Part shown: positions 6,915-27,213 of the stretch, in pieces
Layout of the letters: every line of letters begins with the position of its first letter
Numbering within the stretch: position 1 is the stretch's first letter
Origin: a virus
Taxonomy: Duplodnaviria > Caudoviricetes
IMG/VR virus record: IMGVR_UViG_3300030376_006444
Coordinates: 1 to 40,214 of that record
Length of the DNA stretch: 40,214 nt
Direction: 5' to 3' (one strand)
The notes under the pieces: model-generated
Seen by the model: the letters and a program-made list of their open reading frames with translations, nothing else
Told to the model about the DNA's origin: nothing
Database searches by the model: none
Position numbers and translations under genes: made by a program

Positions 6915-6924
6915 ATGAGGAACT

Positions 6925-7686: not shown

Positions 7687-10600
7687 ACAATCAAAATCAA
7701 TTAGAGATTTTAGCGGAGGAGTTGCTAAGGGCGTAGATGCGTTATCGCTAAAAGATAATCAGCTATCGGAATGCGTTAATTTTATAGCAGATAACGTAGG
7801 TAAGCTTAAAATAATACCCGATGAAAATATTGCCTGTACTAATGAATTAAACACAGAATTACCTGATGGTTATTCAAAAAATATACACTCATGGTCTGCT
7901 GATTTTAATTTGAGTAATTCAGCACAAAGTACAAATCTTGTTGCTCCTTCAGTTACGGAAGTAAAAGTTGCAAAAAGAGCGAATATGGAATTGTACTTTA
8001 CTCCTTTTCAATCAAGTAATGATAATACAGATTATCAAGATAGAGCATTAATTATTAAAGACGCAGATAGAGATGAATATATAATTGAAACTATAGTTAA
8101 AAATCCTTTTGAATTTGGATTTCAAAGTAAAGTTCCTAAGAATTCTATACAAGGCTTAAGCTTAAATGAGTTGGAAATAATGACGCATAAACATTATTTA
8201 CCATCATCAAATGAAGGGTCTGATTATAAAGACCCTACTATCCCTTGGCATTTTAAAACATTAGCTGGTGGCGATACTCGTCCTAATGGCTCAAATACAG
8301 TTAAAGCTTCTTTTGGTCCAATAGATGCTGGTGGCAATCATGGATTTACAGCTAACAGTAGCGAAGCTACAGCAATGAATACATATAATAATCCTGCGTG
8401 GTTGGATAGCACTAAAACCTTTGAAAGCAATACAACTGTATATACAGATACTACCTCAAATAATGCAATGGGAAGAAACTTTAGATACGAAGCTAGTAAT
8501 GGCAATATTGTGTTTCCAGGAGGTCAAAGAAACGGTGGTGCCTTTAAAATAGAATCTGTTCCAAATGGTGGCACTGCAACTAATACAACAAATCCAGTTG
8601 AATTTGGCAAAACTCCTTTTAATGCCTCTGCATCTCAAGATGATGCCTATGCATATCGCATGATAATAGAGTGGGACTATTGGGGAAAAATGAATATAAA
8701 ATTCCCAAATGAGCATCCAGATGGGGCAATCAACTATGCTCGAGGGAAAGGATTTAGACCTATAGGAAATGATAATTTTCCTGCTCCAAGTAAAACTATT
8801 GATGGAGTAACATATAAATATAGAGAATTAGCTCCTTTTTTTCATGGGCACACTTTTGAAAACAAAGTAACAAATCATGTTGGCTCTAATCATATGTGTG
8901 TTGAAAGTGGTGCTTTCTATTATATGTTTAATAGAGCTCCTTCTTTTGGTCAATTTAGCGAATGGACATATAATTTAAGTAATGTAAAAAGATTTGAGAC
9001 AGCTACCTATGGCGTGACTATTGCTTACTATACAAATGTAGAACAAACCAGTGAAGCTTCAATAACAAGAAGTTACGATTTGCAACTTGCTGAAAATGCA
9101 ATGAGTGTTAAATCTGGATTATTTTATGAACCTGATAATATTTTATCAGATGTTCCTACTGACCACCAAATTAAATTTGAAATACTCGACGATAAAGTAA
9201 GAATATTTCAAGACGTAGATACATTAAAAGCTTATGGAATAAAAAACGTTTCTGTGACAAAAACCAACATCGTAGACCTTGGTGAAAAAATTACAGATGG
9301 TCAAAGATATCAACATTTAGTTGCAATAACGAATGAAGATTCTATGGCAACAGTCTACTCCATGGAAAACGACACATGGTTAGACTGGCAGATGGATTTT
9401 AAATTTGAAGAAACAGAATATATAGGCACAGTTAATATAAATAACGGTTCTAATAGTGGAACTTATAACAGCTTTTCAACCTTAGCTCACCCTTCAATAG
9501 TTGGAATGCAAGTAAGGGGAACAGGGATAAAACCTGGTACTACGGTGACTGCTCAAGATACAAGTGCTACGCCTCCTACAATACAGCTAAGTAAAAATAC
9601 ATCATCAGCGATTTCAAATGGGACGGTTTATTATTGGGATTCTTCAATGAATGTAGATGTTTCATATGTAGACGCAGAAGGGCATTTATTTGCAAGCGAC
9701 ATTACATTTAAAAGCAATAACAGACCTCAGTGGTTTGGCTATTTGGATTTAAATAAAACTTATCTAAAAACTCAATTTGATAGTGTTTCAAATAATTTCA
9801 ATAACAATACTCCTCAGGTAGAAAAAGCAAAAGGATTTAGCACAGATGCATTATGTCCTCAACCATACCGAATTAAAATTACAAATAGTCCAGCTACGGC
9901 ATTAAAAGGGCAAAATACGCATATTGCTACAAAAGTAAATGGCTTATTTAAATTTAAAGATTCATCTGGTACGGATTTATCTGATGATGAGACTTTAGTA
10001 AAAAGTGCTCCTAATTCAACAAGCACATGGGCAAGTCATCCTTTAGGAATCAAAATTCAATACGATTGGATAGATGGTCAAGAAAGTGAAGTTGGTACTT
10101 TGATGGAGGGTTCTTTTCTAAAAAAAGAATTAACAGAGTTTTATTTTAGTTACATTTATGAAGGTGGGTACGTAAGTCAACCTCAGCAGTTTTATGAACA
10201 TACGTATAATGCTGGTAATAGTGGAGCAGATTCAATAAATGTTCCATTTTCTACTGCACCTAAAGCAGATTCTTGTGCATTGGGATTGCATATTGGAATA
10301 GGACCTCAATTAATTAGCGGAAAAGGAAATAACGCTAACTGGTCAGGGTTGTCAGAAAAAGATGGTGTATTAAATGCTAGGCTAAAAGGCATTGAAATAT
10401 ATGGTCGCTTTACAAATACAGACCCTAATAACATATATCTTTTATGTGAAATAGATTTAAACAAAGGTTGGAAGTCATTTGCTACTGGAAAATGGAAAGA
10501 CTTTACAACGTTTGGTAACGTATCGCATTACGGAACTAGTTATACAAGTTCTACTGGAGGTCCAGTAACTGACCATATTATTTATAAGGCAGTACCTACG

Positions 10601-11434
10601 TTTCAGAGTTTCTTTAATAAATATCAACTAGCGTGGGATGAGCCTATTGGATTTGAAAGTGATGGTACTGGATGGAAGACAGCTTGCGTATTTAACAGAA
10701 GAGCTTATTATGGCAATGTCAGAATTAAAGGCAAAGATGACCAAATAAAATATTATCCTGATGGTATTTTAAAATCTGCATTAGGTAATTATGCAACTGT
10801 TGGAGAGAGTAATTTAATTGAAGCTACTGTGAACGATGGGGATGATATTGTAGCTCTACGAGTTATTGGTAATAAACTATGTCAATTTAAGAAGTATTCC
10901 TTAACCATAATGGGTGTTAAAACGCTAGAAAATGGCGAAAATCGTGAGGAAATTGAAGAAACCCTACATCATGTCGGCTTAGAGAGTGATAATCAAATTT
11001 GCGACACTCCTTACGGGTTATTTTGGGTTAGTAGAAGTGGAATTTATTTGTATAATGGACAAAATATTCAAACACTTACATCCAATCCCCAAGGTAGTCT
11101 TATTGACAAAACTCAATGGGAAAATTTTTATGGAAAAAGAACCCATGTAGGATATGATGCATACTGGAATCAGGCTCATATATGCAAAGACATAATGGCA
11201 AACTCTGAAGTATTAATCTATAGCTTTAATACGGGGGCTTTTACAGAGGGTTCAGATATGTATACGGGCTCAAAAAGAACTGGTTTTGTTACAGATAGAG
11301 ATGGTCACTTGTTGTGGGCTGAAAAAGTATCTGACGGAACTAGGGGCACTGCTGTAACTCCTAATAAAACAAATAAAGTAACGGAAAAAGCAAGTGATGT
11401 GCAAACTGCACCTCCACCACCTTCGGGGAACTAA
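7679..11434 (+). CDS. Tail nozzle / tail tubular B-like protein with inserted domains
   Basis: GTG start; N-terminal DFSGG motif; beta-propeller-like C-terminal region (FNRRAYYGN, DIVALRVIGNKL, TPYGLFWVSRSGIYLYNG); lies before the ejection-type genes. Confidence 0.65.
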   Translation: MPKQSKSIRDFSGGVAKGVDALSLKDNQLSECVNFIADNVGKLKIIPDENIACTNELNTELPDGYSKNIHSWSADFNLSNSAQSTNLVAPSVTEVKVAKRANMELYFTPFQSSNDNTDYQDRALIIKDADRDEYIIETIVKNPFEFGFQSKVPKNSIQGLSLNELEIMTHKHYLPSSNEGSDYKDPTIPWHFKTLAGGDTRPNGSNTVKASFGPIDAGGNHGFTANSSEATAMNTYNNPAWLDSTKTFESNTTVYTDTTSNNAMGRNFRYEASNGNIVFPGGQRNGGAFKIESVPNGGTATNTTNPVEFGKTPFNASASQDDAYAYRMIIEWDYWGKMNIKFPNEHPDGAINYARGKGFRPIGNDNFPAPSKTIDGVTYKYRELAPFFHGHTFENKVTNHVGSNHMCVESGAFYYMFNRAPSFGQFSEWTYNLSNVKRFETATYGVTIAYYTNVEQTSEASITRSYDLQLAENAMSVKSGLFYEPDNILSDVPTDHQIKFEILDDKVRIFQDVDTLKAYGIKNVSVTKTNIVDLGEKITDGQRYQHLVAITNEDSMATVYSMENDTWLDWQMDFKFEETEYIGTVNINNGSNSGTYNSFSTLAHPSIVGMQVRGTGIKPGTTVTAQDTSATPPTIQLSKNTSSAISNGTVYYWDSSMNVDVSYVDAEGHLFASDITFKSNNRPQWFGYLDLNKTYLKTQFDSVSNNFNNNTPQVEKAKGFSTDALCPQPYRIKITNSPATALKGQNTHIATKVNGLFKFKDSSGTDLSDDETLVKSAPNSTSTWASHPLGIKIQYDWIDGQESEVGTLMEGSFLKKELTEFYFSYIYEGGYVSQPQQFYEHTYNAGNSGADSINVPFSTAPKADSCALGLHIGIGPQLISGKGNNANWSGLSEKDGVLNARLKGIEIYGRFTNTDPNNIYLLCEIDLNKGWKSFATGKWKDFTTFGNVSHYGTSYTSSTGGPVTDHIIYKAVPTFQSFFNKYQLAWDEPIGFESDGTGWKTACVFNRRAYYGNVRIKGKDDQIKYYPDGILKSALGNYATVGESNLIEATVNDGDDIVALRVIGNKLCQFKKYSLTIMGVKTLENGENREEIEETLHHVGLESDNQICDTPYGLFWVSRSGIYLYNGQNIQTLTSNPQGSLIDKTQWENFYGKRTHVGYDAYWNQAHICKDIMANSEVLIYSFNTGAFTEGSDMYTGSKRTGFVTDRDGHLLWAEKVSDGTRGTAVTPNKTNKVTEKASDVQTAPPPPSGN

Positions 11435-11874
11435 TGGCAATATTACTTAAAACTACTACATCGGCTAGAAAAGATATCGCATCTGGAAAATTAATTACAA
11501 AGCATTACGATATGGGCGATGTAAGCATTAATAAAAAATTTAATAGATGTAATGTTACTTACAAGATGGAGAGTACTGGGATAACTCCTTTAAAAGTTTC
11601 ATACAGACTAGATGAGGCTGGTTCTTTTGTTGACTTTGACGCAGTAGATGACAATGCTTTTTCTGTATATGATAATGGAGCTAGGCTATGTAGGACCAAT
11701 GGAAAAATTAAAACTGCAGAATTCGATTTTGCTAAAAACAATAAATACGGTAAAGTAGTACAGATAAAGATTGCATACATTGCATCTGGTATGAGTTTCA
11801 ACTCAAGTACTGACATAGATGGGTTTGAATTATCTGATATTACTTTTACTTACAGACCAATTAACAGGAATTAA
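11434..11874 (+). CDS. Stand-alone nozzle C-terminal-like beta domain
   Basis: ITKHYDMGDVSINKKFNRCNVTY resembles the C-terminal motif of podovirus nozzle/stabilisation proteins; TAATG coupling. Confidence 0.5.
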   Translation: MAILLKTTTSARKDIASGKLITKHYDMGDVSINKKFNRCNVTYKMESTGITPLKVSYRLDEAGSFVDFDAVDDNAFSVYDNGARLCRTNGKIKTAEFDFAKNNKYGKVVQIKIAYIASGMSFNSSTDIDGFELSDITFTYRPINRN

Positions 11875-11875
11875 T

Positions 11876-12391
11876 ATGGCAAACAATCATTATTCAAAGC
11901 ATAGTAGTAGAGCCGATATCCAAAGATATTGGGATTATCACAATAATAGGGAGAAAAATATAGCTGTTGCTTCTGATGTTGGTGGTAAAGTAGCGAACTT
12001 TATGGTTCAAGATTATTTAGACACAAAAAAGAATCCACCTAAAGTCGCTAAAAATATTGTATCAACAGCGTCAAATGTTCATCCAAAACTAAATAGTCCA
12101 CAATTTGCAGGTCAACCTACTGAATCAGGACTGATGGGATTTGTAAAAAATCCTTCATGGGCTGGGTTGGAAACAGGTGTAGCAAACACATTAACAAACC
12201 CAATAACTAATCTTGGCGGTATGGCAACTAAAGCTGGATTTGCAAAAACTGGTGGATTAATAACTGGTGCTGGTACAGCTTTAAAAGGAGCATTGACATC
12301 AATGGGACCAGTAGGTTGGGCACTTTTGGCAGGAGGAGCTTTAATGCTTCATCAAGGCAAAGGTGGCGGAAGAAATAAAAGGAGATATTAA
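11876..12391 (+). CDS. Putative internal virion (ejection) protein
   Basis: The ATG at 11876 follows AGGA. Gly/Ala-rich, with a hydrophobic C-terminal GPVGWALLAGGALML segment. Confidence 0.55.
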   Translation: MANNHYSKHSSRADIQRYWDYHNNREKNIAVASDVGGKVANFMVQDYLDTKKNPPKVAKNIVSTASNVHPKLNSPQFAGQPTESGLMGFVKNPSWAGLETGVANTLTNPITNLGGMATKAGFAKTGGLITGAGTALKGALTSMGPVGWALLAGGALMLHQGKGGGRNKRRY

Positions 12392-12891
12392 TGAACCCAT
12401 ATGAATGGCTTGATAACAGACTTGGTGGCATTCTACCAGGAGGAGCCAAAACAAGCGGTATAGTAAGAGATATTCAAAAAGGATTTTTAGGAAAAAGCTA
12501 TGATGCTATTCTTGGAAGAAGGGGATTCTTTGGAGAATATTTAGGTGGAAGAAAAGCAGATAGGAAACGTAGAGCAATAGGTGGTATTGCAAAAGAGATA
12601 GCCAATATAGAAAGTCGTAAAGCAGATATTTTCCCAGATGAAATGACAAACTTTAACAGAAAAACGCTAAATGATTGGAATACACTTCAAGGAAAGAATT
12701 CTGCATCACCACTTACCATGGCAACTGACACAGGTAAAAACCAAAAATTTCAAAACATTATTAATCAAGCAATCAACAATACAAATGCTTCATTAAACAA
12801 AACAATAACTTCAGCACAAGACAGGTTATGGGGACAAGAAGACCAGATTGCCAACTTAAAAGCTGAAACACAATCAATAAGGGATTCATAA
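12391..12891 (+). CDS. Putative internal virion protein
   Basis: Gly-rich N-terminus, N/Q-rich helical C-terminus; position in the ejection block. Confidence 0.5.
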   Translation: MNPYEWLDNRLGGILPGGAKTSGIVRDIQKGFLGKSYDAILGRRGFFGEYLGGRKADRKRRAIGGIAKEIANIESRKADIFPDEMTNFNRKTLNDWNTLQGKNSASPLTMATDTGKNQKFQNIINQAINNTNASLNKTITSAQDRLWGQEDQIANLKAETQSIRDS

Positions 12892-12892
12892 C

Positions 12893-13864
12893 ATGGATGA
12901 CATAACAAGACTATTAGGCTCAATTATAAGCGGTGGCTTGGATGGATATCAACAAAATCAAAGATTAGACAAAACAATTCAAGCACAAGAAGATATAGCC
13001 TTATTAAAAGACTCTTTAAGCGTAAAAAACACACAACAATTAAATGAGAATAATAGAGAAAATGCATTATTGTCAGATTCCTTAGGGGTTAAAAACGCAA
13101 TGCTAGAAGATTCTTTAGATACCGAAAGAATGATGCGAGCAGATTCTTTAGCAAATGAAAGACATGAAGATACTCAAAGATTTCAAAAAGGAAATCAAGC
13201 ATTAGGTCTTATGACTGCTTTGGGTCCAGCAATGACAGATACAAAAAACCAAGAGTTAAGCAATCAAATAGCTAAGGGTGATTTTCGATATGAAAATATT
13301 CGTACTAAAGTACGAGAATTAGAAGATGCAAAAAGAGATGCTAGACAATGGACTCCTGATTTAAACAATTTAAACAGACGAACATTGCAGTTTAGAACTG
13401 AAAAATCTTTTCCATTTAGTGAAACAGATATGCTAAATGATTATACAGAAGTAAGAGACGATTTAGAATTGACGGTTTTGGAAGCTTTGAAACTGCCACC
13501 CAATGATATGAAAAGAGCAGGAGTCTTAAAATTTCTTAATAAGATGGTAAAAAGAGCTGGGCATACAGATTTCTTAGACGGAGATTGGGGTATATTTGGA
13601 GGCGAGGACCCAGATGGGGCACAAGCACAAGCAATTAAAGACGAATTAGAAACGTGGCAAACATTATTAAAGGATAAAAAAAGTAGCAATTCACTTTTAG
13701 ACGATATGTATAACATTTCTCCAGAAGATAGAAAGTTTTATCAAGAATGGAGAGGGCAAAGAGGTGCACTTTCTGGTAAAAAAATAGCAAACGTCGATGC
13801 TCAACAAGCTGAAATGATGAGTGTTTTAAAAACTTTAGTTGAACAATCTAATCCTAGTAAATGA
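12893..13864 (+). CDS. Putative internal virion protein
   Basis: N-terminal LLGSIISGGLDGY, internal xDSL repeats, helical; coupled (ATGA) to the giant gene. Confidence 0.5.
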   Translation: MDDITRLLGSIISGGLDGYQQNQRLDKTIQAQEDIALLKDSLSVKNTQQLNENNRENALLSDSLGVKNAMLEDSLDTERMMRADSLANERHEDTQRFQKGNQALGLMTALGPAMTDTKNQELSNQIAKGDFRYENIRTKVRELEDAKRDARQWTPDLNNLNRRTLQFRTEKSFPFSETDMLNDYTEVRDDLELTVLEALKLPPNDMKRAGVLKFLNKMVKRAGHTDFLDGDWGIFGGEDPDGAQAQAIKDELETWQTLLKDKKSSNSLLDDMYNISPEDRKFYQEWRGQRGALSGKKIANVDAQQAEMMSVLKTLVEQSNPSK

Positions 13865-16800
13865 ACCCATTTCAGACTAGGGAAAAACTAAAAAGATATC
13901 GCTTTAGACCTGAAAACTTCACTCAAGAAGAAGCAAGGGAATTAGAGCGATTTTCAAAGCTATACGGCTTTGTTCAAGAAAACCAACCACTAGAAGAAAC
14001 TTCAAGCAATAAACAAAGCAATATGCTTTCCCAGTTTAGTTCTGGGTTTACAGAGGGCTTACTTGGTCCTATTGCTATGGGTGGCTGGGCTGAAGACCCT
14101 CAAGATGAATTCCAATCTATCGCCCATAGTGCAGGGCATTTATTAGGGTTTGCATTGCCTCTGGCTGGTAGTCTTGTATCGTTTGGTGGAACTGGAATAG
14201 CAAGACTAGGGTTGATGGGTAGCGGTAGAATAGCAAAGGGTATTCAAGCTACAGGTAAAACAATAGGTGGCTTTGGTCAGGCTATGAAAAAAGGTAAGTC
14301 TGTACCTTTATTTGTAGGTGATAAAGCTGTAGATGCTACAAAAAAGATTTTAGCTAACGCTGGGTTTGAAGCTGGCAAGTACCTTGAGGCTGGTGCCAAG
14401 ATTGGGTTTAAAGCAAAAATGACTGATGTTGCATTTCAAGCACAGCATTTATCTGTAGCAAGTGCTGTAAGTGGAATGTGGAATGGCGAAGACGATGAAG
14501 TAGATAATTTAATATTTGGTGCTGTAGCTGGAGGGTTTTTTGGAGGCTTAGGAAACTTTGTGCGTGTTGGTAACATGATACAACACCCTAATAAGGTAGT
14601 ACGAGAAGCTGGGAAACGTAATCTTTGGGAATCGTCAAAACAATTATCAGATACTTTATATAATTATAGAGGTCAAATTCTTAGAGGTGCATTAGGTGCT
14701 GGTTTTCAAGGTGGAATGGCTACTATGCAAGGTGCACCAACTGCTACGCAACTATATGAATATGCATTAGGGGCATTTTTTGGTGCTGGTGCTCATGGAA
14801 TTAGGGAAAAGAAAGCATCTGAGTTTTTTAACAGTTATGAAAAAAGAAATGAAGAAGGTGCTTTACAGAAAGATTTTGCTGAGCGAAGGAATATGCTTGA
14901 GTCAGACGAGTTTAAAGCACTCCCTTTAGACTCTCAGCAATTAGTAAGAGAAAAATACACAAATTATATTGGAGATTTTTGGGATAGGTTCAAAGGAGAA
15001 GCCCTTCAAACAGATGATTCCTTACCTAGTGTTAAACTAGCAAGGGAAATACTAAAGCCCTACAACGAAGCATTAGAAAGAAAAGCACAAGAAGTCAGTA
15101 AGAAGACCGAAGACTTAGAGCCGTTTGAGATTGCCCAAGTTCAAGCTGAACTAATGGAGGTAGTACCTCAGCAATACGCAAGAGATTTAAACCTAAGAGT
15201 AATATCTGAAGGGTTATTAAAAAAGATACGCAACCCTAAGGAAAAATTAGAAGATACACAGCAAGAAATAGTAGATAAACTTACTCCTGAAGAACTTTCT
15301 CAAGTCAAAGAAGGCTATATAGAGCCATTAGAGAAAAAGATTGTTGAGTATTTTGAAAATATACCTCAAGAAAAAATAGAAACAACTGCTCAGGACATAC
15401 TGCGAGCAGAAGAGAATTTAATATCAGACCAACCTGAACTTGTAGTTGAGCCAGTTATTAGGCGGTTTCTTAATCAACTACAAAAAGAAACAGACATCTA
15501 CGAACCTAACGATGTATTAGAACACGCAGTAAAGACTTATAATGAATTACTGCCAAAGTCAGAAAGTGGTAAACGAGACACAAGATTTATCCCCGTAAAG
15601 GGAATGGTAAAAGAATACATAATGCTTCTTCAGGATAAGTTTCCTGGCATCAGAGTCACACCAGAAATGAAAAACAGCCTTACTCAAATGTACACTAGAC
15701 TATCGCAAGGCGTTATAAGACCAGTTATTAGTTACGACAAAACTACTCAGAAAAGAAAAACAATATGGGGATTTAATGTATTAAAGAGAAAAGTATCAGG
15801 TAGCGAGCCACGTTCAGCAGATGAAAAAATGTATGAAAATTTATGGGGAGATAAAGTTACAGTACGAGAATTCTCTGAATTAGTAGACAAAAAAGGCAAT
15901 ACCTACATAACATTAAAGCCTTACGACAAGGTGTGGAATGACAACTTAAAAGAATGGGTCCCTGCAATGCGTAGCAATGACTGGTTAAACATAACTAAGG
16001 GACTAGATAAAAAAGACCAGTATTTAAAAATACCTAAAAAAGATGGCGGTACTGAGCGTATATACAAGTATCACCCAAAAACAAATAGCACAGAATTAAA
16101 CACTATTGTAAAAGAAGTAGTAACGAAGTCAAAAAGTAAAGCAATAACAGAAGATTTACTTAAAAAATACATTGAAAAAGACTATAAAGTTTGGCTTGAA
16201 ACAATGGGGTTTGATTTAAAGCTGGAAAAAGACCTCATTGAAAATCAAGGGTTACGCAATTTATATAATAAAGCTTTTAAGTCTAATTACTTATACGAAA
16301 AAAACTGGAATTTTAAAAACGCAATTGCAAGAGTAAAACGTGAGGCACTACTTGCATCTAAGTCATTTTACGAGCAAGACAGAAAGTTTTTTAAAGACCT
16401 TACTAACGATACTGGCAAAATAAACATTATAGCTATAGAAGCTGAAGCCAATCTACTGGGAAAGCTTAGCAGTACTGGAAAAAGAATAGGGCAATGGCTA
16501 AATGTAGAAGGTAAAAAGCCTGAAACATTCTGGACTGTAGATAAGAATGGAAAACTAATGGAACAAGCATGGGAAAGTAAGATTGATGGTTGGTTAGTAA
16601 TGCATTCTGATTTATATAAAAGATTTATGGAAGCTAACGGATTTGATGGCGTTCAAATGTCTCATATGAAGCCTGCAGTAGCTGTTACAATGCCTGATGG
16701 AAGTCTGTTTTTAATAAAAGGTGGAGTACATCCAGGAAACAAGGCTTATAACGATGCAATGCCTAGTCCTAACTCTATGATAGTCGTGACTTCTGCTATC

Positions 16801-19800
16801 AAATCTATGCCAGAAGGTGCAAAGGTATATAAAGGACAAGCTAAAAAGAATGGTAAATACGAAATAAAAGACTACGACAAACCTTCCTTAGAAATGAATG
16901 TTGAAGACTTTAGAATAAGTTTTGGCGTATATGGAGACAAGCACTCAGCAGAACCCACTACAATTAAAAAACAAATGCATTCATTTTTTGATAGCCTAAC
17001 TATGAGTAGAGATGGTTATAGAGAATTTATGGACGCAATTCATTTTGATGTAATTAATGGCTCAAAGCAAGCCAATGAGTATATGCAAACCTTAAAAGAA
17101 AACCCTGATGCATTGCCACCAAAGGGGTTCAAGGTTACAGAATTAAGTGATAAAGATTTTATTACAGTTATAAACAACCCTAGTCACAAGCTCCACAAAG
17201 AATTAAACCTAGAAATCTTTAAGAAAATCAAAAGGATGGAAAAGGCAGAAGAATTTGAAGGTGCTGTGTATGAAGAACTAAAAGAGTATGCTAATAATTT
17301 TGAACGATGGTACCGAGCTACTGGTTATAATCCTGTATCTGCAATAATAAACAATAGTTTATATGAAAAGTCTGTGCATATATATCGTATGAATAAATTT
17401 ACTAATCCAGAATGGAAAAACTCTGGAAGCGGATGGGTAGCTGGGGTAGACCCAGTAATGGAGGCAGTAACTGGAGGTATTAAAAAGAATGCAACCTATG
17501 AGTTTTTTGAAGATGGAAAGTTAAAGAAAAGAAAAGTGGGGCATTTTAAAGTAGGTATAAGCCATAAAGACATGAAGGTTAAATGGCTTGGTGAAGGTGA
17601 ACAGATAAAACTAATCGAAGCTTGGGAGCAGTTTAAAAAAGAAAAGAATCCACACGTCAAAGCAAGAATGAGAAACAAACTCATGTTTGCTGTAATGAGG
17701 GTCCCAGCTAATGCAATATCAGGGACTAGGGCATTAATATTTGATGGATTTGTAAAAAATGACGTTGATTTATCTGATTGGGGCGTTTATATGAGAGGCA
17801 GAGACCACTTTTACATAGATGGAGCTGACGTTGATGGCGATAAAGTGTTCTTTTATCAAGGATTACCTCAGAAATACCTTAATGATTTAGTCAAAAACGA
17901 TAGTTTTTTGGAAAGGGCAAAGCAAGGTAAGAGTGTTTTCTTTGAAAATAAAGCTGAAAAAATGGATAAGTTGTTTAAAAGCGAAGTTTCTAAAGCAGAT
18001 TTAGACTACGTTAACAACAACCCATTGGCTCAATGGTCTCCTGGTGCATTACGTAAAACAGGTATAAGTGCATACACAGGAAAAAAAGGATTGGGATTAG
18101 TAGTAAATGCTAAATCGTTTTTAAATAATGTGTTAGCTGATGTGATAACCAATAAGGGTGGTAAAATAAGATTAGGGGTTTACACAACAAGTAAAGAAAC
18201 TGGTAAAAAAATACTTATAGGTGACTTAATTGGTCAAACTGACATGGCACAATTAAAATCTGAAAACGGTTATTACGTAGTAGGTACAGAGGCACATAGC
18301 AGAACAGCAGATAGTGCAAATTATTACAATATGGCAACTCCGCAAGAGATGGTAGACATTGTTACTCAAAGTGCTTTTAGGAGTTTAAAGTTTCACCCGA
18401 TTGAAGAAGGAAAAATTAGAGATGGAAGACTTAGTGATTTAAAAAACACATTAGAATATGCTCATTTAAGTGAATTGAATAACAAGTTGTATGGGTATGA
18501 TTTTTCAAACGATAGGGCATTTACTATAAGTGAAATACAAAATGCTGTAAAGCCATTTAAAGGCGAAGTAAAAACTATGAGTTCTATCGTTGATATTGCC
18601 CACAAAGTGGCACAAAACGAATTGAACATTGACCCACTCAGGCATTTTAACTACCAAGCATTTAGAGAAGCTATAAGAACTTTAAGCAATGAATTATTGC
18701 GAGACAAAGACGTACTAAAATACATTACTAGAAAGAACCTGAGGGTAATGCCATTGTACTACCACATAGATTATCAGGCAGTGTATAAAGCGATGTTAAA
18801 ACACCCAGAGTTCACTACGAAAAATGGACTAACCTTACGAGAAGTTCCAGAAAAAGGTGCTACTAAAAAAGATAAAGAACCATATAGGGAGCTACTATGG
18901 GAAGCGTTAGAACCGCCAAATAAAGAAGGGATTTCTCCATTAGAAGAAAGACTAGGAGATATCGGTAAAGGCGTACAAAAAACATTTAATAATTTATTTT
19001 CTAACCAAAGAATGGAGATAGGTAAAGCTATATCCAGATATGATGCTAAAGTTGAAAAAGAATATAAGATAAATGACTCCTACGATATATGGAGTGCCTT
19101 ACAACTCAACATAAAAGGTAAGGCATTAGATGATGCATTAAAAAACGCTGGTCACATTTCAGAGAAAGGTCAAATACCTTATGAGCGTATTAATGAAATT
19201 GCTAACAGAATAGTAAATGGTGAGCAAATAACTGGCAATAATATCGAAATGTTGGAAACTCAAAAATGGTCAAAACAGATACAAAAAGCAGTAGACGACA
19301 TACAAGCTGGCAAGCAACCAAAGACCGCTTCTGAGAGCAAATTTTTAATATTAAGAGACATTATAGCAAGACAAGCTGAAGCTGTAAAGCTCAAATTTAA
19401 TCATGCGTTTAAAAATGAAAATCAAAGAGTATTCGAGAACGAGCAAGAAGCCAATAAATTTATTAGAGAAAACGTAGTTGAGATAAGCAACATAGCAAAA
19501 GAATTAAAGATTAAACCTGAAGTAGCAGTTGATTATTATTACAATTACCTACTAAGCAGTTTACGTCCACAGCCAGTTCGATTAGAGGGAATTATTAGAA
19601 ACCTTAATGGTAGAATAGCAACTGCGGAAAAGAAAGGTCAAGCAGATAAAGTAGAAATACTAAAAAGGGAAAAAGAACGGGCAAGAGCTCAATACGAAAA
19701 TACCAGCACACCTCAATTTATATGGTCAGTGGATGCGATACCTGACCGAGTAAAATCACAATTTATGAAAGGGTATGCTGATACTTTCGATTTACTCAAT

Positions 19801-22800
19801 ACTGTTACTACTGATAAAATATCAGGAGAACTTACAGGATATTTAGCAAAATCCAAAAAAGACACTAAGCTTGGAGAGATTGAAAGCAGTATAGATGCTG
19901 AGGTAATTGCTGAGGTAGAAATTGATAGATTATTTAAACCAGATAAGCTAGGTGGTGTAGAAATTGCAAAAGATGCAAAAGGAAAAGCTGATGACGTGCC
20001 TAGTGATATACCACAAGTATTACGAGGTATTACCCAGAGTTTAAAAACATTACCCGATGGAGCTATTTTAAGATTTGAAGACCTATATACTTATATGAAA
20101 TCAGTACAAGGCGATGGTCCAACAAGTATTAAGATGGCAACTTGGGAAGACATAAGGTCATTTAATCGATTTTTAAAGGACATAGTTAACTCTACGAATC
20201 CAACTGGTAAAGTAAAAAAGATATATGACTTCCTTTTTCCAGATACAGTAGGTAAAAAACAAGCTGGGCATGACCTTGATTTGTTATTTAAAATGAAAAC
20301 ACCTATACGTAATGCCAAAGATATGGGACTAGCTACTATAAAAGTGCCATTATCCTCTATGTCATTTATACAAAAAGTTGGTGGACAAATGAGAGAACTT
20401 GAAGATTCTATTAAAAACAGTATGGTAGAATCCTTATTTAATGGCATTACTGTGAAATCTGAATTGGAAGCAATACCAAATGGTATTCAAACGTTTACTG
20501 ATTTATTTATGTTTGCTCAAAAGAAAATGAACTATGAACGTGCTGTAAAGCCTCAAGATGTTGAGTTTTATGGAAACGAATGGGCATCATCCTTAAAACT
20601 ATGGGACAGTAAATACAAAGGTAAAAAATTCAAGTTTACTAGAGCTGGTAAAGTAGTTGAAAAAACCTCTGAAGAAATAATTAGAGACATTCAAGAACAA
20701 CAAGGAAAGTTTTTACAAGGATTTTATGAAAGCTATTTAGGAGCTGGTGTTATAGATAGGTCTGGTGAATGGAAGCGTATTGACTGGAAGCGAGTTGATG
20801 AAAATGCAGAATGGGCTAAAAACGGATTGGTAATACATGACTTTATACGTTACGATAAAAATGGACGATTTGATTTAGAAAACTTTCAGAAAAAAGTAAT
20901 GGACCACGTAGAAACATTTGGCGTTAATGCATTACATAAGATGTTAGGGAATCGAAATAATCCTTTAGGTACTGAGCTATTAAACAGGGTACAGCACGAA
21001 ATAGGCTTAGAAGAGCATATACTAAGTAAGAAAATAAAGCCTAATTCAGAAGAGTCTAGAAATGTCAGACTAGAATGGAGGAAAGCTAACGAATTTTTTG
21101 GAATTGGAAGAATAGGTACGGAAGGAACAGAAGGGTTTTCTACAGAATACTTCCCTCAAATGAAACATGATACAAAAAAATTAAAACCTTGGGTGCAAGA
21201 ACAGCAGTTAAAGCTTAAAGAAAAATTAGAAAACTACGTTAATGACTTAACTCATGCTGGTAAAACAGTAATGGAAGACTCTTCTTATAAAATACCTAGA
21301 CGATATAGGTTTAAAGAAATTGAATTAGAAGCTTTAAAAGGCAAAATGTCTGATAAGCAACTAATAGACATATGGGGCGTATCTAATGTTACTATTAAAC
21401 CACATTTGATAAGCCTCAAGCTTGCAAGCCAAAATGCTGATTATCAATTGTACTTAGGGCAAAGAGTAGAAAGTGCAATGGGTCAATCAGACTATCTAGT
21501 AAACTTTTTAAACGCTGAATTCCGTAAAGGAAAAGAGCAATGGCAAGATATTAACGCTGAGTTTAGACCAGGAACTGGTAGACAAAGAGGCGATACTCAT
21601 GTACCGTATTTTAGTTACGGCTTTGAAGTTTTAGAAGCATACACTAATCAATGGGTAAGCTCCTTATTTAAAAACTTAAACGCATTAACTTTTCGTAAAG
21701 TCATAAATAATTACGAGCAAAACAATGTCTTTGCTAAAGAAAACCCTGAAATGGGAGAAATGTGGTCTAAGGAAATGAGAAGATATGCTAGTAGCTTAAT
21801 GGGGAAACCAAATGCATTACCAACAAAGTATACTGGGTTAAGTATTGTAGAAAAAGCAAAGCTTAAGCAGAGAATAAAACAAGCACCTGATGGTCCTCAA
21901 AAAGAATTGGACAAACGAAAATTAGAACGTGATGATAAACTTAAAAAACTATATGGAACTAAAGTAACCACATGGAATCCATTACAAAATATTGAATACA
22001 GAATGTCTGACCAAAATCTGGTTGAATACCTTGATGCCAAATCACAGCAATTAAACAAATGGGCGATTCCTGGCATTAGTAAAAAATTTCACGGTACACC
22101 AGAAGCACCTAAGCTATTTGGAATGGATTTGCCTACTTCCGAAAAAGCAAGACACCAAGTTTTATATCAAATCCTTAATAATATAGGTGCTTACGAATCA
22201 AAACTTTCATTGATATCACTACTAGCTCATCCAAAAACATATTTAGGTAACGTAGTAGGTGGTAGCTCTAATACCATAACCAATATGGGTTTCAGGCAAT
22301 TTAAAAGGGCGAGAGATGTAAAGTGGCTAGTAACTAACGTGTTTGCAGGTGCCAAGCTAAAAGACGGTACTCCAATTACCGATAGGAATACCATACATAG
22401 ATGGGTAGCAGAAATTGGTGCGTTAGAATCGTTCTATATCAATGAAGCTATGATGGATAAGCGATTAGACGCTAAAAAATTGAAACCATTTTTTAAAGAA
22501 GTGTTTTCTAAAAGAGATGTTACAGATGCTACAGTAATGGACTTAGCTAAAAAATACCAAGTAACAGATTCTATATTATCTGCTGGTGGCTGGTTTATGA
22601 GAGCCTCAGAAAGAACACTTCGTACCGATGCGTTTATAGCACATTATCTAAATGCAAGAGAAGCTTTGGGACAAATAATACCTAATATGCCCTTTGACCA
22701 TCCCTACCTTACAGGAATGGCATTAAAAGGCGTTGAAGCTACGCAGTTTTTATACCATAACGTTAATAGACCAGCAGTTTCTCGCTCTACAATGGGAAAA

Positions 22801-23334
22801 GTGTTTACAAGATTCCAACCTTTTATGTGGAATTCAATACGTTTTAGAAGAGATATTTATAAACAAGCTAAGATGTATGGGTTTAATGATAAAAAATCAA
22901 TGGATAGGCTAAAAAGATTGACCATTATGGACTTATCAACCTTTGCATTAGCGAATGTATTTGTAGGTTCTCTTTTTGACAGCATACTACCACCTCCTTT
23001 ATCTTACGTACAAGATACTGCCGATTGGTTATTCGGAGATAAAGTTGAAAGGGAGAGAGCGTTTTTCAGTGCCTATCCACATCCTATATTAGCACCATTG
23101 CAGGTAGCCACAGCTCCAATACATAGATATTGGATGCCACTAATGACTGCCCTAATTAATGGAGAATGGGAACGATGGGCAAATTACTATACGTGGTCAA
23201 TGATGCCATTTGGAAGACTGGCAAGAAGTACTATTATGACATTAGAAAGACCAGAAATGACTGCTGAATTCATGTTTGGAATACCAGTACATAAATTAGG
23301 AAATATGATAAGGAAAGATAACGATGGGTCCTAA
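13861..23334 (+). CDS. Giant virion protein containing a putative single-subunit two-barrel RNA polymerase
   Basis: 3157 aa with ordered motifs D909-G, K953-G, S978xxK981, R1280xP and G-A-D1323-V-D1325-G-D1327. Gly/Ala-rich hydrophobic N-terminus and helical ejection-protein-like C-terminus. Confidence 0.8.
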   Translation: MNPFQTREKLKRYRFRPENFTQEEARELERFSKLYGFVQENQPLEETSSNKQSNMLSQFSSGFTEGLLGPIAMGGWAEDPQDEFQSIAHSAGHLLGFALPLAGSLVSFGGTGIARLGLMGSGRIAKGIQATGKTIGGFGQAMKKGKSVPLFVGDKAVDATKKILANAGFEAGKYLEAGAKIGFKAKMTDVAFQAQHLSVASAVSGMWNGEDDEVDNLIFGAVAGGFFGGLGNFVRVGNMIQHPNKVVREAGKRNLWESSKQLSDTLYNYRGQILRGALGAGFQGGMATMQGAPTATQLYEYALGAFFGAGAHGIREKKASEFFNSYEKRNEEGALQKDFAERRNMLESDEFKALPLDSQQLVREKYTNYIGDFWDRFKGEALQTDDSLPSVKLAREILKPYNEALERKAQEVSKKTEDLEPFEIAQVQAELMEVVPQQYARDLNLRVISEGLLKKIRNPKEKLEDTQQEIVDKLTPEELSQVKEGYIEPLEKKIVEYFENIPQEKIETTAQDILRAEENLISDQPELVVEPVIRRFLNQLQKETDIYEPNDVLEHAVKTYNELLPKSESGKRDTRFIPVKGMVKEYIMLLQDKFPGIRVTPEMKNSLTQMYTRLSQGVIRPVISYDKTTQKRKTIWGFNVLKRKVSGSEPRSADEKMYENLWGDKVTVREFSELVDKKGNTYITLKPYDKVWNDNLKEWVPAMRSNDWLNITKGLDKKDQYLKIPKKDGGTERIYKYHPKTNSTELNTIVKEVVTKSKSKAITEDLLKKYIEKDYKVWLETMGFDLKLEKDLIENQGLRNLYNKAFKSNYLYEKNWNFKNAIARVKREALLASKSFYEQDRKFFKDLTNDTGKINIIAIEAEANLLGKLSSTGKRIGQWLNVEGKKPETFWTVDKNGKLMEQAWESKIDGWLVMHSDLYKRFMEANGFDGVQMSHMKPAVAVTMPDGSLFLIKGGVHPGNKAYNDAMPSPNSMIVVTSAIKSMPEGAKVYKGQAKKNGKYEIKDYDKPSLEMNVEDFRISFGVYGDKHSAEPTTIKKQMHSFFDSLTMSRDGYREFMDAIHFDVINGSKQANEYMQTLKENPDALPPKGFKVTELSDKDFITVINNPSHKLHKELNLEIFKKIKRMEKAEEFEGAVYEELKEYANNFERWYRATGYNPVSAIINNSLYEKSVHIYRMNKFTNPEWKNSGSGWVAGVDPVMEAVTGGIKKNATYEFFEDGKLKKRKVGHFKVGISHKDMKVKWLGEGEQIKLIEAWEQFKKEKNPHVKARMRNKLMFAVMRVPANAISGTRALIFDGFVKNDVDLSDWGVYMRGRDHFYIDGADVDGDKVFFYQGLPQKYLNDLVKNDSFLERAKQGKSVFFENKAEKMDKLFKSEVSKADLDYVNNNPLAQWSPGALRKTGISAYTGKKGLGLVVNAKSFLNNVLADVITNKGGKIRLGVYTTSKETGKKILIGDLIGQTDMAQLKSENGYYVVGTEAHSRTADSANYYNMATPQEMVDIVTQSAFRSLKFHPIEEGKIRDGRLSDLKNTLEYAHLSELNNKLYGYDFSNDRAFTISEIQNAVKPFKGEVKTMSSIVDIAHKVAQNELNIDPLRHFNYQAFREAIRTLSNELLRDKDVLKYITRKNLRVMPLYYHIDYQAVYKAMLKHPEFTTKNGLTLREVPEKGATKKDKEPYRELLWEALEPPNKEGISPLEERLGDIGKGVQKTFNNLFSNQRMEIGKAISRYDAKVEKEYKINDSYDIWSALQLNIKGKALDDALKNAGHISEKGQIPYERINEIANRIVNGEQITGNNIEMLETQKWSKQIQKAVDDIQAGKQPKTASESKFLILRDIIARQAEAVKLKFNHAFKNENQRVFENEQEANKFIRENVVEISNIAKELKIKPEVAVDYYYNYLLSSLRPQPVRLEGIIRNLNGRIATAEKKGQADKVEILKREKERARAQYENTSTPQFIWSVDAIPDRVKSQFMKGYADTFDLLNTVTTDKISGELTGYLAKSKKDTKLGEIESSIDAEVIAEVEIDRLFKPDKLGGVEIAKDAKGKADDVPSDIPQVLRGITQSLKTLPDGAILRFEDLYTYMKSVQGDGPTSIKMATWEDIRSFNRFLKDIVNSTNPTGKVKKIYDFLFPDTVGKKQAGHDLDLLFKMKTPIRNAKDMGLATIKVPLSSMSFIQKVGGQMRELEDSIKNSMVESLFNGITVKSELEAIPNGIQTFTDLFMFAQKKMNYERAVKPQDVEFYGNEWASSLKLWDSKYKGKKFKFTRAGKVVEKTSEEIIRDIQEQQGKFLQGFYESYLGAGVIDRSGEWKRIDWKRVDENAEWAKNGLVIHDFIRYDKNGRFDLENFQKKVMDHVETFGVNALHKMLGNRNNPLGTELLNRVQHEIGLEEHILSKKIKPNSEESRNVRLEWRKANEFFGIGRIGTEGTEGFSTEYFPQMKHDTKKLKPWVQEQQLKLKEKLENYVNDLTHAGKTVMEDSSYKIPRRYRFKEIELEALKGKMSDKQLIDIWGVSNVTIKPHLISLKLASQNADYQLYLGQRVESAMGQSDYLVNFLNAEFRKGKEQWQDINAEFRPGTGRQRGDTHVPYFSYGFEVLEAYTNQWVSSLFKNLNALTFRKVINNYEQNNVFAKENPEMGEMWSKEMRRYASSLMGKPNALPTKYTGLSIVEKAKLKQRIKQAPDGPQKELDKRKLERDDKLKKLYGTKVTTWNPLQNIEYRMSDQNLVEYLDAKSQQLNKWAIPGISKKFHGTPEAPKLFGMDLPTSEKARHQVLYQILNNIGAYESKLSLISLLAHPKTYLGNVVGGSSNTITNMGFRQFKRARDVKWLVTNVFAGAKLKDGTPITDRNTIHRWVAEIGALESFYINEAMMDKRLDAKKLKPFFKEVFSKRDVTDATVMDLAKKYQVTDSILSAGGWFMRASERTLRTDAFIAHYLNAREALGQIIPNMPFDHPYLTGMALKGVEATQFLYHNVNRPAVSRSTMGKVFTRFQPFMWNSIRFRRDIYKQAKMYGFNDKKSMDRLKRLTIMDLSTFALANVFVGSLFDSILPPPLSYVQDTADWLFGDKVERERAFFSAYPHPILAPLQVATAPIHRYWMPLMTALINGEWERWANYYTWSMMPFGRLARSTIMTLERPEMTAEFMFGIPVHKLGNMIRKDNDGS

Positions 23335-24952
23335 AGAAGCAAAATATTACAGAGACTTACTTGAAACAATAGGAATAAAATTTAAAAGTAAAGGAACAAG
23401 GCTTAAAGGTCCTCAGTATTATGGGATAGAAGATACTGAAATGACATCGCCTTTAAGTAATAAGGAATTTTCACGGAGAAATTTTGCATTAACTGAAGAA
23501 GGTAAAATTATACCAGCAGGTAGTCCTGCGTTAATTCCCACAGAAGTATACCCTACGCCTAAAGGTGCTATAACAAGTATTGCCACAGATGAATTAGCTA
23601 TGCGAAATCCTTGGCTTGGATTAATTGGTGGAGCAATTATGAGCAGAGGAAAGAAGTTCTCAGATAATACACCAGATACTAGAATGTATCCAAGGTACCC
23701 TGATAACTACGGTAAAGGATACGGTTATCAAGACACTCCTTATTTATATCCAACAAAAAGAACTCCTGATTTTGAGCCAGTAATACGGCACGATAATAGA
23801 TTTCAAATTCCAATGGCTCCTCCTAGGCAAAAAGTTGATTTAAACCCACAGCAACGAATAACTATGAATGCGTTAGAAAGGGCTGAAGGTAGAACAAGGG
23901 CTTTATGGGCTAAAGATAAACAGGTAATTTTAGATAATAATCAAAACCCAGTAGTTGTTCCACAAAGCGAACTAATGGAAAGACTCGATAGTCAGCTTAA
24001 AAATCCATTATTTGGAAACTATCCTTGGTTTCAAGAGGGTACAGTTGACTTAGGTGGTGGCAATACAATGTATAATTTTAATCAAGTTCCTGGGTTTGGA
24101 GCATTTAGAAACGTTCAAGACAAAAAAGCAAAAAACACACTGGCTTACGCATCAATTCCTGGCGAAATGCATGATTTAGACTTAGCTACTCCAAGTGGTT
24201 TTAAAGGAGAACATTATGATGACGCTATGCAAATTAAATATGACAATGTTGGACACGCTATGGAAGGTATTGAAAAAGCGTATAGAAATAATCCTGACTC
24301 ATATTATATAATAGGGCAAACTGGCGGAGGACTAAGAGTATGGGACGTAGGGAACACCACAGCAAGGACGCATGACCCTAAATTCCTTCAAAATAGAAGA
24401 GATGCTATGCAAGAAATGGGAAATGATGAGTTTTATACTAATATGACTATGGGTAACAATTCAGCTAGAGTTATGCAATTAGCTGATAATCTTGGAATAT
24501 CTTATGATAACGCAACGCAGGAATTATTAAGATTAAGAAGAGAAGGAATTATAGATGATAGGTTAGCAAAAGAATGGTTTGCAGGAGAAGGAGCTCATTC
24601 TGATGCTAGACTTGATGAAAAAATGGTACGATTAATGGGTTATAAAGACCCAGATTTCGACTCTGGTCCTCCAATGGGGTACCAAGAAATGTTTCGTTTA
24701 GGAAATAAAGAGAACATAAGTGCAGGAAAATACTTGTCTTATGCAACACATAGAGACCTAATGAATAGACTCAGGAGAGCTAGAGGGTTAATAGACCCAG
24801 TAAGAGACGATATGGGACTAGGTGTTTTAGATAGCAAATATTTAGATTATACAATGAAAGCAATGAGCCCTGATTGGAAAGAGCAACTTAGGAAAAACTG
24901 GAGATTAGGCTTACTTGCCCCAGCAGTATTGCCACAAAGCGAAGAAAAATGA
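23324..24952 (+). CDS. 542-aa protein with possible AEP-like catalytic domain
   Basis: Motifs HDLD, QTGGGLRVW, GNDEFY and DARLDEK; Pro-rich low-complexity N-terminal half. The CDS is solid, the function is speculative. Confidence 0.45.
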   Translation: MGPKEAKYYRDLLETIGIKFKSKGTRLKGPQYYGIEDTEMTSPLSNKEFSRRNFALTEEGKIIPAGSPALIPTEVYPTPKGAITSIATDELAMRNPWLGLIGGAIMSRGKKFSDNTPDTRMYPRYPDNYGKGYGYQDTPYLYPTKRTPDFEPVIRHDNRFQIPMAPPRQKVDLNPQQRITMNALERAEGRTRALWAKDKQVILDNNQNPVVVPQSELMERLDSQLKNPLFGNYPWFQEGTVDLGGGNTMYNFNQVPGFGAFRNVQDKKAKNTLAYASIPGEMHDLDLATPSGFKGEHYDDAMQIKYDNVGHAMEGIEKAYRNNPDSYYIIGQTGGGLRVWDVGNTTARTHDPKFLQNRRDAMQEMGNDEFYTNMTMGNNSARVMQLADNLGISYDNATQELLRLRREGIIDDRLAKEWFAGEGAHSDARLDEKMVRLMGYKDPDFDSGPPMGYQEMFRLGNKENISAGKYLSYATHRDLMNRLRRARGLIDPVRDDMGLGVLDSKYLDYTMKAMSPDWKEQLRKNWRLGLLAPAVLPQSEEK

Positions 24953-25126: not shown

Positions 25127-26023
25127 ATGCGTTTAAAGCGAAATCTATACAAAGACTCGTTTGGTAATATTTTCTACAGGAAACAGATACAGGGAAAGAG
25201 AATTATCTTACCAGTCTACACCAAAAACATCAACACAGCTAATAAATTACATACAGCATTGGAATACCAAGCGTTAAGTAGTTATTACGCACCAAAACCC
25301 AAAGAGACATACGAACCTTTCTCTAGTTTAATAACTAAATATTTAAACGATGAAGAAGTTCTAAGCAAATGGTCAGACGCTAGTAGGGAAGTAACACGAT
25401 ACGTTTTACGTAGTTTTATAAAAAACGGTAAACTGCCAGATAATAAAGAAACAGCAAGAGGTTATCAATCTAGAATTAATGCTTGCGTAAATTGGGGAAT
25501 ATCAAAAGGCATTAGAACTGAAATAAACCTTATGGAAGTAAATAAAAAGGTAGGTAGAACGAGAGTTTTTACTCAAAGAGAATTAGATATAATTCTTACA
25601 GAGTTTCAAGACGATGAATTTCAACAATTTATTCGCTTTGCTTATTATACAGGAGCCAGGAGGGGAGAGCTAGTCAATATAAAACCATACTATATAGAAG
25701 CTACCAGAATGAAGGTATTTGGCAAAAGTGGAGAACGTTTCGTTAAATTGAATAAACAGGCTATTCAGATACTAGCTTCTACAGAAAAACTATGGAGCTA
25801 CAAGCTAGATTTTATTACAAAAAAGTTTAAGTGGAACACACGTAGGCTTGATATAAAAGATGCCCGTTTTCACGACCTACGTAGGACATTTGGTTATAAT
25901 TTAATACGAAAAGGAATGCCTATATATCAACTTAGTAAGCTACTGGGTCATAGCTCTGTGAAAACAACACAAGACCATTACGCACCATTACTAGTAGATG
26001 ATATAGAAGACTTTACTCTTTAA
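25127..26023 (+). CDS. int: Tyrosine recombinase / phage integrase
   Basis: Catalytic motifs YTGARRGE, FHDLRRT, LLGHSS and TQDHY. Confidence 0.95.
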   Translation: MRLKRNLYKDSFGNIFYRKQIQGKRIILPVYTKNINTANKLHTALEYQALSSYYAPKPKETYEPFSSLITKYLNDEEVLSKWSDASREVTRYVLRSFIKNGKLPDNKETARGYQSRINACVNWGISKGIRTEINLMEVNKKVGRTRVFTQRELDIILTEFQDDEFQQFIRFAYYTGARRGELVNIKPYYIEATRMKVFGKSGERFVKLNKQAIQILASTEKLWSYKLDFITKKFKWNTRRLDIKDARFHDLRRTFGYNLIRKGMPIYQLSKLLGHSSVKTTQDHYAPLLVDDIEDFTL

Positions 26024-26325
26024 CATTCCCAACAGGTTTCTTTATCTGCTGGTATATTAAAATAATGTTTTCCTAGACTCCTTGGTGACAATTCACCTCT
26101 TTCTCCAGTAATAGTATTGACCCAGTACTTTTTACATACAGGACATTTTTTAGGCTGATAAGACGAAGTAGCAACATTCCTATAGTATCTTGATTGATTA
26201 TCTGATATTATAGGATGAAAATCTATCCATTCTTTACCTAAGTAATATTCTAAGTCCTTAACCCTCGCTTTATTCTTAGAATCTTTTTTTTCTTGCCCAC
26301 TCGTTTGTTCATCAAACGGTGGCAT
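26020..26325 (-). CDS. Zn-ribbon protein
   Basis: CPVC...CWEC; GGAGAGG RBS; stop overlaps the integrase stop. Confidence 0.65.
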   Translation of the reverse strand: MPPFDEQTSGQEKKDSKNKARVKDLEYYLGKEWIDFHPIISDNQSRYYRNVATSSYQPKKCPVCKKYWVNTITGERGELSPRSLGKHYFNIPADKETCWEC

Positions 26326-26337
26326 TTCCTCTCCCTG

Positions 26338-26594: not shown

Positions 26595-26616
26595 TTTCAC
26601 TCCTATTTTAAGTTAG

Positions 26617-26960: not shown

Positions 26961-26972
26961 ACAGACGGAGTG

Positions 26973-27212: not shown

Positions 27213-27213
27213 A

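Follow-up and report, generated by a model that had tools for sequence, protein, structure and literature searches.

The virion-borne two-barrel RNA polymerases (RNAPs) characterised so far belong to crAss-like phages, P23-45-like siphoviruses and jumbo phages. According to the available text of the respective sources, gp66 of crAss-like phages (bioRxiv 2020.03.07.982082), gp96 of the Thermus phage P23-45 (bioRxiv 2022.12.01.518664) and the virion RNAP (vRNAP) of N4 (PMC4496689) are all ejected and transcribe early genes, and the N4 enzyme is laid out as a membrane N-domain, a polymerase and a large C-domain (available part of PMC13434306). Among the eukaryotic RNA interference (RNAi) polymerases (PF05183), QDE-1 of Neurospora has both DNA-dependent and RNA-dependent RNA polymerase activity, uses D709, K743, K767, R962-x-P964 and D1007/D1009/D1011, and reads the 2'-OH with its RxP arginine (available part of PMC9508822). 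Here we describe a gene at positions 13861-23334 (plus strand) of a 40,214-base stretch of viral DNA, IMG/VR record IMGVR_UViG_3300030376_006444 (81% complete; the whole stretch is called the window below), which encodes a 3157-amino-acid (aa) cysteine-free protein, the giant protein, with a Gly/Ala N-domain, a predicted two-barrel RNAP core and a helical C-domain. We consider it probable that this chain is packed in the head, ejected through a short tail and transcribes the early arm of the genome.

The open reading frame (ORF) has no internal stop, and since a separate IMG/VR contig (L048) encodes the same 3157-aa frame, and contigs of sequencing run X6 tile the gene with none of the indels listed falling inside it, the giant ORF is not an assembly artefact. 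Eleven of the 24 rows listed for marine metagenome DNA runs hold at least half of the record's words, three of them being possible sources, and there was no RNA dataset holding these words among the runs listed. An earlier note on this DNA had named the ORF, five polymerase motifs and a 43-aa spacing from RxP to the first aspartate, and we located all of them exactly as described: KIDGWLVMHS (aa 907-916), FLIKGG (950-955), VVTSAIK (975-981), MRVP (1279-1282) and GADVDGD (1321-1327), with 43 aa from R1280 to D1323 and a single DxDGD in the protein. In 5000 residue shuffles of the giant protein DxDGD arose 174 times, RxP followed by DxDGD at 35-50 aa six times and the full motif series never, a rarity that is somewhat overstated because the pattern was derived from the finding itself.

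Structure prediction carries the identification of the core. The AlphaFold2 model of aa 790-1760 (predicted local distance difference test, pLDDT, 80.6; predicted TM-score 0.74) matched gp66 first (E 5e-7) and then QDE-1 (E 5e-6) in Foldseek, and when it was compared with 48,161 PDB representative chains using VIA-align, ranks 1-17 were all two-barrel RNAPs. These included QDE-1 (Z 16.4-16.6, root-mean-square deviation (rmsd) 4.2-4.4, 472-473 aa), RDR2 (Z 13.5-15.6), P23-45 gp64 and P74 gp62 (12.8-13.1), gp66 (11.5, over 574 aa) and gp96 (11.3); the order that places QDE-1 above gp66 is no phylogeny, as the alignment to gp66 is longer and Foldseek ranks gp66 first. Neither YonO nor PolD was among the structural matches listed. 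A BFVD search with the core model returned seven unnamed viral proteins on top, followed by crAss-type polymerases, and the closest named ESM cluster was PF05183 at 0.80, which is a lead only. Residues 17-801 of the model align across both QDE-1 barrels, so that the polymerase core, aa 806-1590 (16276-18630, plus strand, like all features of the giant gene below), pairs with QDE-1 646-1182 (VIA Z 16.6, rmsd 4.2, 472 residues). Isolated double-psi beta-barrel (DPBB) chains match the two halves separately: 7bkb_J covers model residues 63-234 (Z 5.8), corresponding to the first barrel, DPBB-B (aa ~852-1023; 16414-16929), with D909, K937, K953 and K981, and the VAT DPBB 7dbo_B covers residues 399-546 (Z 7.5), corresponding to the second, DPBB-A (aa ~1188-1335; 17422-17865), with R1280-V-P1282 and D1323/D1325/D1327. 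The last three residues form the predicted catalytic metal-binding loop GADVDGD (17821-17841). Inside the QDE-1-aligned range, a long helix at aa 1394-1431 (model helix 605-642) and the conserved D1484 (together 18040-18315) may occupy the bridge-helix position and serve as the base of the trigger loop, respectively. The residues D909, K953, K981, R1280-x-P1282 and D1323-D1327 appear to be the counterparts of the QDE-1 residues listed above, in the same order and with similar spacing.

The catalytic residues are retained throughout the family. A word-index search found the query's own record and 52 other proteins, the close homologues, in all of which R1280, P1282, D1323, D1325, D1327 and D1484 are present; K953 is found in 51 of the 52 and D909, K937 and K981 in 50, the misses being gaps. 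In 121 distant homologues R1280/P1282 is kept in every sequence, D1484 in 117, K953 and K981 in 115 each, D909 in 114, and K937 and Q1038 in 112 each; the aspartate count is circular in this set, which was chosen by the Asp loop. Among 195 homologues, 186 have the G-x-DxDxD loop, the other nine being fragments in which the match does not reach the site, and catalytic aspartates, lysines and RxP persist in homologues at ~20% identity. With a DPBB pair in the model, gp66 and QDE-1 at the top of the Foldseek ranking, and the three aspartates and two lysines that the earlier note had named conserved as above, its proposal of a single-chain two-barrel polymerase stands, and we regard the predicted core as almost certainly a real enzyme of this class. 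Of its SxxK element, the lysine (K981) held up and the serine did not (kept in only 68/121 distant homologues), and K937, Q1038 and D1484, which it did not list, are as conserved as the lysines it named.

The family is large. A profile built from 25 core sequences found 241 clusters (clustered at 50% identity) at E<=0.001, most of the 150 listed being 2600-3900 aa long, and a search with the C-domain found 415 IMG/VR stretches. Among 83 C-domain loci (80 from IMG/VR and three from GTDB), 63 encode the core within the C-domain ORF itself, 19 are truncated and one is split in two overlapping ORFs (L046:2-5053 and 4887-8294), which may be a natural split, a frameshift or an assembly error. Judged by sequence, the three-part design is common to hundreds of marine phage relatives that lack annotation. 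Some homologues (P0012, P0115, P0188, P0140, P0089, P0067) contain inserted cpYpsA/YAcAr SLOG, NADAR, DUF7831, C-terminal REase or DprA-like domains, resembling those of polyvalent injected proteins, and two (P0095 and P0128; 5249 and 5818 aa) are larger fusions with a core starting near aa 2450.

How does the giant protein compare with the described enzymes? Like gp66, it is a single chain with two DPBBs and a connector, RxP and DxDxD, and it shares with gp66 its giant size, near-complete lack of cysteine and location among structural genes near the muzzle. However, gp66 is 2180 aa long with cysteine only at its ends, whereas the giant protein has 3157 aa and no terminal cysteine; its N- and C-domains do not match gp65, gp66 or gp67; a single giant gene replaces the three of crAss; and the crAss genome is ~100 kb, as opposed to 47-51 kb here with a P22-like portal and SU10-type capsid. 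Position 4 in the catalytic motif is Ile or Val in Crassvirales vRNAPs (available text of bioRxiv 2020.03.07.982082), Ile in gp66 and Gly in our query, although Ile does appear in 39 of 174 members of the family. From these comparisons the giant protein does not appear to be a gp66 orthologue: detectable homology, Ile/Val at position 4 and the three-gene block in a ~100-kb crAss genome are all missing. A FastTree tree of the 174 cores has Gly at position 4 in 108 sequences, Ile in 39, Ser in 16 and Ala in 11, and parsimony needs 24 changes to account for these residues, compared with at least 53 (mean 61) in shuffles; the query's own clade of 53 members keeps Gly (DVDGD). The tree, whose deep nodes are weakly supported, indicates that the crAss-type Ile arose repeatedly in this family; in gp66 the Ile has been linked to an inactive loop conformation (available text of bioRxiv 2020.03.07.982082).

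QDE-1 and the plant enzyme RDR2 give the highest Z-scores against the core, but at 11-13% identity and with no Pfam match, and the giant protein differs from them in being phage-encoded and fused to ejection-type domains. In architecture it resembles gp50 and gp71 of the Schitoviridae N4 and DEV, which are likewise ~3200-3500 aa and cysteine-free, pass from a membrane-leaning N-domain through the RNAP to a helical C-domain, and have smaller cysteine-free ejection proteins encoded upstream. The N4 core, however, is of the T7 type (right-hand), as opposed to two-barrel, and no T7-type polymerase matched the giant protein (no PF00940, nor any by VIA); repeated hairpin promoters of the N4 type were not found here. 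P23-45 gp96 and gp64 have the same kind of core, one chain with two barrels (Z 11.3 and 13.1), and in gp96, too, it is joined to a DNA-delivery protein, but that protein is a siphovirus tape measure, whereas the virion here is of short-tail type, and P23-45 has both enzymes where we found a single RNAP gene. We picture a protein that would do what gp66 does, built on an N4-like chassis.

Around the core, the Gly/Ala-rich, weakly hydrophobic N-domain (aa ~40-330; 13978-14850) has profile matches in 106 of 108 distant full-length homologues and is likely to insert into a membrane after ejection. The helical C-domain (aa 2760-3150; 22138-23310), found in 106/108 distant homologues, is under stronger constraint than any other part of the protein, with 124 synonymous against 22 amino-acid differences to L008 (22 in 397 codons, compared with 135 in 789 for the core).

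The gene neighbourhood points to DNA-delivery cargo. Upstream lies a likely tail nozzle or muzzle gene (1251 aa; 7679-11434, plus strand), an identity that rests on ESM features at 0.92 to crAss_MUZ_C clusters and a weak PHROG 'head closure' match; the gene belongs to a cluster (c0) present in 21/25 loci. It is followed by a 146-aa ORF (11434-11874, plus strand) that clusters with it, and by three cysteine-free ORFs of 190, 166 and 323 aa, likely small ejection proteins (11819-13864, plus strand); positions -1 and -2 relative to the giant gene are cysteine-free in 23 and 21 loci, respectively. The earlier note had taken the giant gene as the last of the run, but it is followed by a variable cysteine-free 542-aa ORF, likely further cargo (23324-24952, plus strand), and then by a tyrosine integrase/recombinase that closes the late arm (25127-26023, plus strand; PF00589, E 1e-15; 16/25 loci). 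In the window and 24 other loci the gene order is kept: endolysin, metallophosphoesterase, ~1100-aa protein, small ORFs, giant gene, variable ORF, often the integrase (16/25) and then the converging replication arm.

The giant protein and its four adjacent ORFs hold no cysteine in 4378 aa, where 42 would be expected from the 0.97% in the rest of the window, and cysteine is absent from 48/49 close and 101/108 distant full-length homologues, compared with 2.2% in opposite-strand genes. Two distant homologues (P0084, P0108) have a single cysteine as their very last residue, cf. the ends of gp66 and gp67. In the Schitoviridae, the ejection operon shows conserved suppression of cysteine, attributed to transit across the periplasm (available part of PMC11445570), and cysteine-free internal virion proteins are described for Zobellviridae (available part of PMC10747016). 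Among the best 80 loci for the small terminase subunit (terS), 17 contigs are at least 31 kb long, and 16 of these also carry the polymerase; the exception, G006, whose large terminase subunit is 79% identical, has a cysteine-free 1799-aa protein without the core in the giant's slot (L212:1609-7008), which does not align to the family C-terminal profile. The early arm of G006 differs, and its contig also holds a second terminase/portal/capsid-like set and may therefore be chimeric. Because of the cysteine-free block, the position after the muzzle-like gene and the cysteine-free substitute in G006, we consider it very likely from gene content that the giant protein is ejected. If G006 is taken at face value, this core-less near relative shows the polymerase module to be exchangeable.

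We propose that the protein would be expressed late and loaded alongside the three small cysteine-free upstream proteins, and that it would leave the particle before the DNA and cross the periplasm in an unfolded state, a passage that would account for the loss of cysteine. The Gly/Ala N-domain would anchor at the inner membrane, and the C-domain would join the ejection channel or regulate the enzyme, as proposed for the N4/DEV vRNAP. In the refolded core, D1323/D1325/D1327 and D909 would bind Mg2+, K953 and K981 the phosphates, and the R1280-x-P loop would select ribonucleoside triphosphates, by analogy with QDE-1. The core would make rifampicin-resistant early transcripts and may help to pull the DNA in. 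As neither PolA nor PolB turned up in four near-complete relatives, host enzymes are proposed to handle late transcription and DNA synthesis. Transcription of early genes we infer from the precedent of gp66, gp96 and the N4 vRNAP.

The likely template is the opposite-strand early/replication arm (26020-37751, minus strand), which starts beside terS and encodes a Hjc-like resolvase, primase-helicase, Sak and DUF932 as well as small proteins of early type. Two conserved non-coding elements lie on the minus strand near its head: E1 (37869-37942; 39/68 terS loci), and E2, a hairpin followed by AATCC.TGCA..AAAA after the first early ORF (37225-37280; 31 loci), neither of which occurs in 991 kb of control sequence. 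E1 has a C-run/G-run and flanking inverted TTTTCAA/TTGAAAA, and both elements are single-copy, between terS and the early arm (loci L128-L205). As polymerase-specific promoters they are ruled out, since both persist in the polymerase-less G006, and they are probably packaging or terminus signals, or transcription signals for host RNAP. Sigma-70 sites are not enriched (43, compared with 52.9 in shuffles).

Several observations weigh against an injected early-gene polymerase. Foldseek TM-scores to gp66 and QDE-1 are low (0.25-0.36), and known RNAPs show no sequence-level match to the giant protein in Pfam, PHROGs or PDB. Core and C-terminal profiles gave no Pfam, PHROG or meaningful PDB sequence match, 14 distant homologues matched no RNAP PHROG, and the C-terminal part matches, weakly, the unnamed phrog_11358 in 9/24 members. 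Using hhalign, RxP and the Asp loop fall in register with gp66 DFDID (E 0.022, probability 2%, only DPBB-A aligned), but hmmsearch with the 174-sequence core profile does not detect gp66 (E 7); with an in-register loop at that probability and a profile that misses gp66, we place the two in the same superfamily but in separate families. Of the hydrophobic Gly/Ala N-terminus that the earlier note had described, the Gly/Ala richness is plain and the hydrophobicity modest, the 19-mers at aa 95 and 216 being weak with a score of only 1.4. Its helical, ejection-like C-terminus is helical in the model (pLDDT 72.8) and ejection-like only weakly: the C-terminal third has no Foldseek match at E<=0.001, and the PhiM1 ejectosome 8vb2_A, the sole long alignment among the C-terminal structural matches listed, is a weak one (Z 5.5, rmsd 7.8, 284 aa). 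As we read it, the loss of cysteine shows passage of the envelope and not transcription. Finally, a polymerase-specific promoter was not found, with no convincing repeat family in 32000-39600, and because E1 and E2 persist in the core-less G006, a related early-arm head can work without the polymerase.

The last two points also favour the strongest rival, namely that the enzyme is injected and active but that its main job is not early mRNA, being instead that of a DNA-pulling motor or the synthesis of primers, of short regulatory or antisense RNAs or of copies of an RNA template, with host RNAP transcribing the early arm; the two activities of QDE-1, the best structural match, fit this as well. 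We think it unlikely, since all three characterised ejected RNAPs transcribe early genes and the phage encodes its own primase-helicase, and early transcripts of gp66 also lack a common upstream motif in the available text of bioRxiv 2020.03.07.982082. Improbable, in turn, is that the enzyme stays out of the virion and is synthesised during infection to transcribe middle or late genes, in the manner of P23-45 gp64 or SPbeta YonO, which has a late role. P23-45 gp64 and P74 gp62 do score above gp66 (Z 12.8-13.1), but the gene follows the muzzle-like one within the late structural block, is cysteine-free together with its neighbours when opposite-strand genes have 2.2% cysteine, joins the polymerase to ~2400 aa of other conserved sequence, and has its slot taken by another cysteine-free giant in G006. 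The stronger constraint on the C-domain than on the core (22 and 135 differences in 397 and 789 codons) and the variation of loop position 4 (G, I, S, A) might suggest that the protein is a structural ejection component whose polymerase fold is a dead vestige, but retention of the catalytic Asp, Lys and RxP across homologues at ~20% identity makes this highly improbable, and active gp66 also has Ile at position 4. Least probable of all is a PolD-like two-barrel DNA polymerase acting as phage replicase, for which the absence of PolA/PolB from all five genomes searched (four near complete; controls positive) could be cited, but against which stand the three-Asp loop, the RxP arginine that reads the 2'-OH in QDE-1, the lack of PolD among the 50 matches listed in either VIA search (inconclusive in itself) and the use of host DNA polymerase by many small phages.

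The relatives of the window bear on the short-tail virion assumed for an ejected early-gene polymerase. Four near-complete relatives are 47-51 kb long and encode terminase, and the two that were scanned, G002 and G004, match a portal of P22-like and a capsid of SU10 type. In the part of the relatives' ORF lists that was inspected, where no family-directed search was made, no ORF stood out as having the size of a tape measure or sheath, and a capsid tblastn search returned no crAss phage among its four matches. By these sequence markers the relatives are podovirus-type phages and not crAss. No cultured member was found by tblastn or blastn with the core, the C-domain or two distant homologues. 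The phages with the nearest capsids, CRP-810, Mel-JY34 and LS06-2018-MD01, encode cysteine-free giants of 1579-2026 aa, which do not match the core, N or C profiles (bases 8000-57692 for CRP-810). A GTDB search with core patterns gave no match, GTDB scans showed no integrated copy (12 loci came up in the integrase scan), and three GTDB contigs carry the C-domain (L044, L045 and L046: a Prochlorococcus single-cell contig of 46 kb, and Saccharibacteria and Arcobacter metagenome-assembled genome contigs of 47 and 17 kb). Because these look like stray stand-alone phage contigs and disagree with each other, we claim no host. Shine-Dalgarno-like words precede 13/32 genes, against a 7% background, and as Bacteroidota make low use of such sites, this frequency speaks weakly against a Bacteroidota host.

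We found no description of this polymerase family in the literature (subscription journals lay outside coverage), and its motifs and labels are absent from the readable supplements of PMC10770324, which do not include what is likely the archive of that paper's 23 family alignments. The family would extend virion two-barrel RNAPs to unannotated 47-51-kb marine phages (241 clusters, 415 stretches), in which the giant gene takes one fifth of the genome in an N4-like three-part layout, and offers new expressible enzymes with which to address both transcription-driven DNA entry and the idea that RNAi polymerases came from phages. A bolder and rather doubtful extension is that compact marine podoviruses built an N4-style motor on a QDE-1-like core independently of N4 and crAss, a single chain anchored in the membrane that would clear the path, transcribe the genome and reel it in, and that the family, with its canonical GADxDGD loop and best fit to QDE-1/RDR2, may be more closely related to the eukaryotic RNAi polymerase than crAss gp66 is; were it true, the Gly/Ile/Ser/Ala loop switches (24 changes) would form a natural series on how virion polymerases stay off.

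At the far end of the window (38600-40214, plus strand) lie terS, assigned as likely by position, and the start of the large terminase subunit, which in a full-length relative matches phrog_38 and PF17289. The terS-like ORF at 38600-39499 has 299 aa, where relatives have one of ~251 aa and a separate ~64-aa ORF that matches its tail, so that it represents a fusion or a frameshift in this record. Upstream of the terS region, an AT-rich cluster of palindromic repeats at 38230-38320 (TAACGT.GTGTACACTA twice, nested inverted repeats), similar to low-complexity patches in five relatives, is a possible replication origin.

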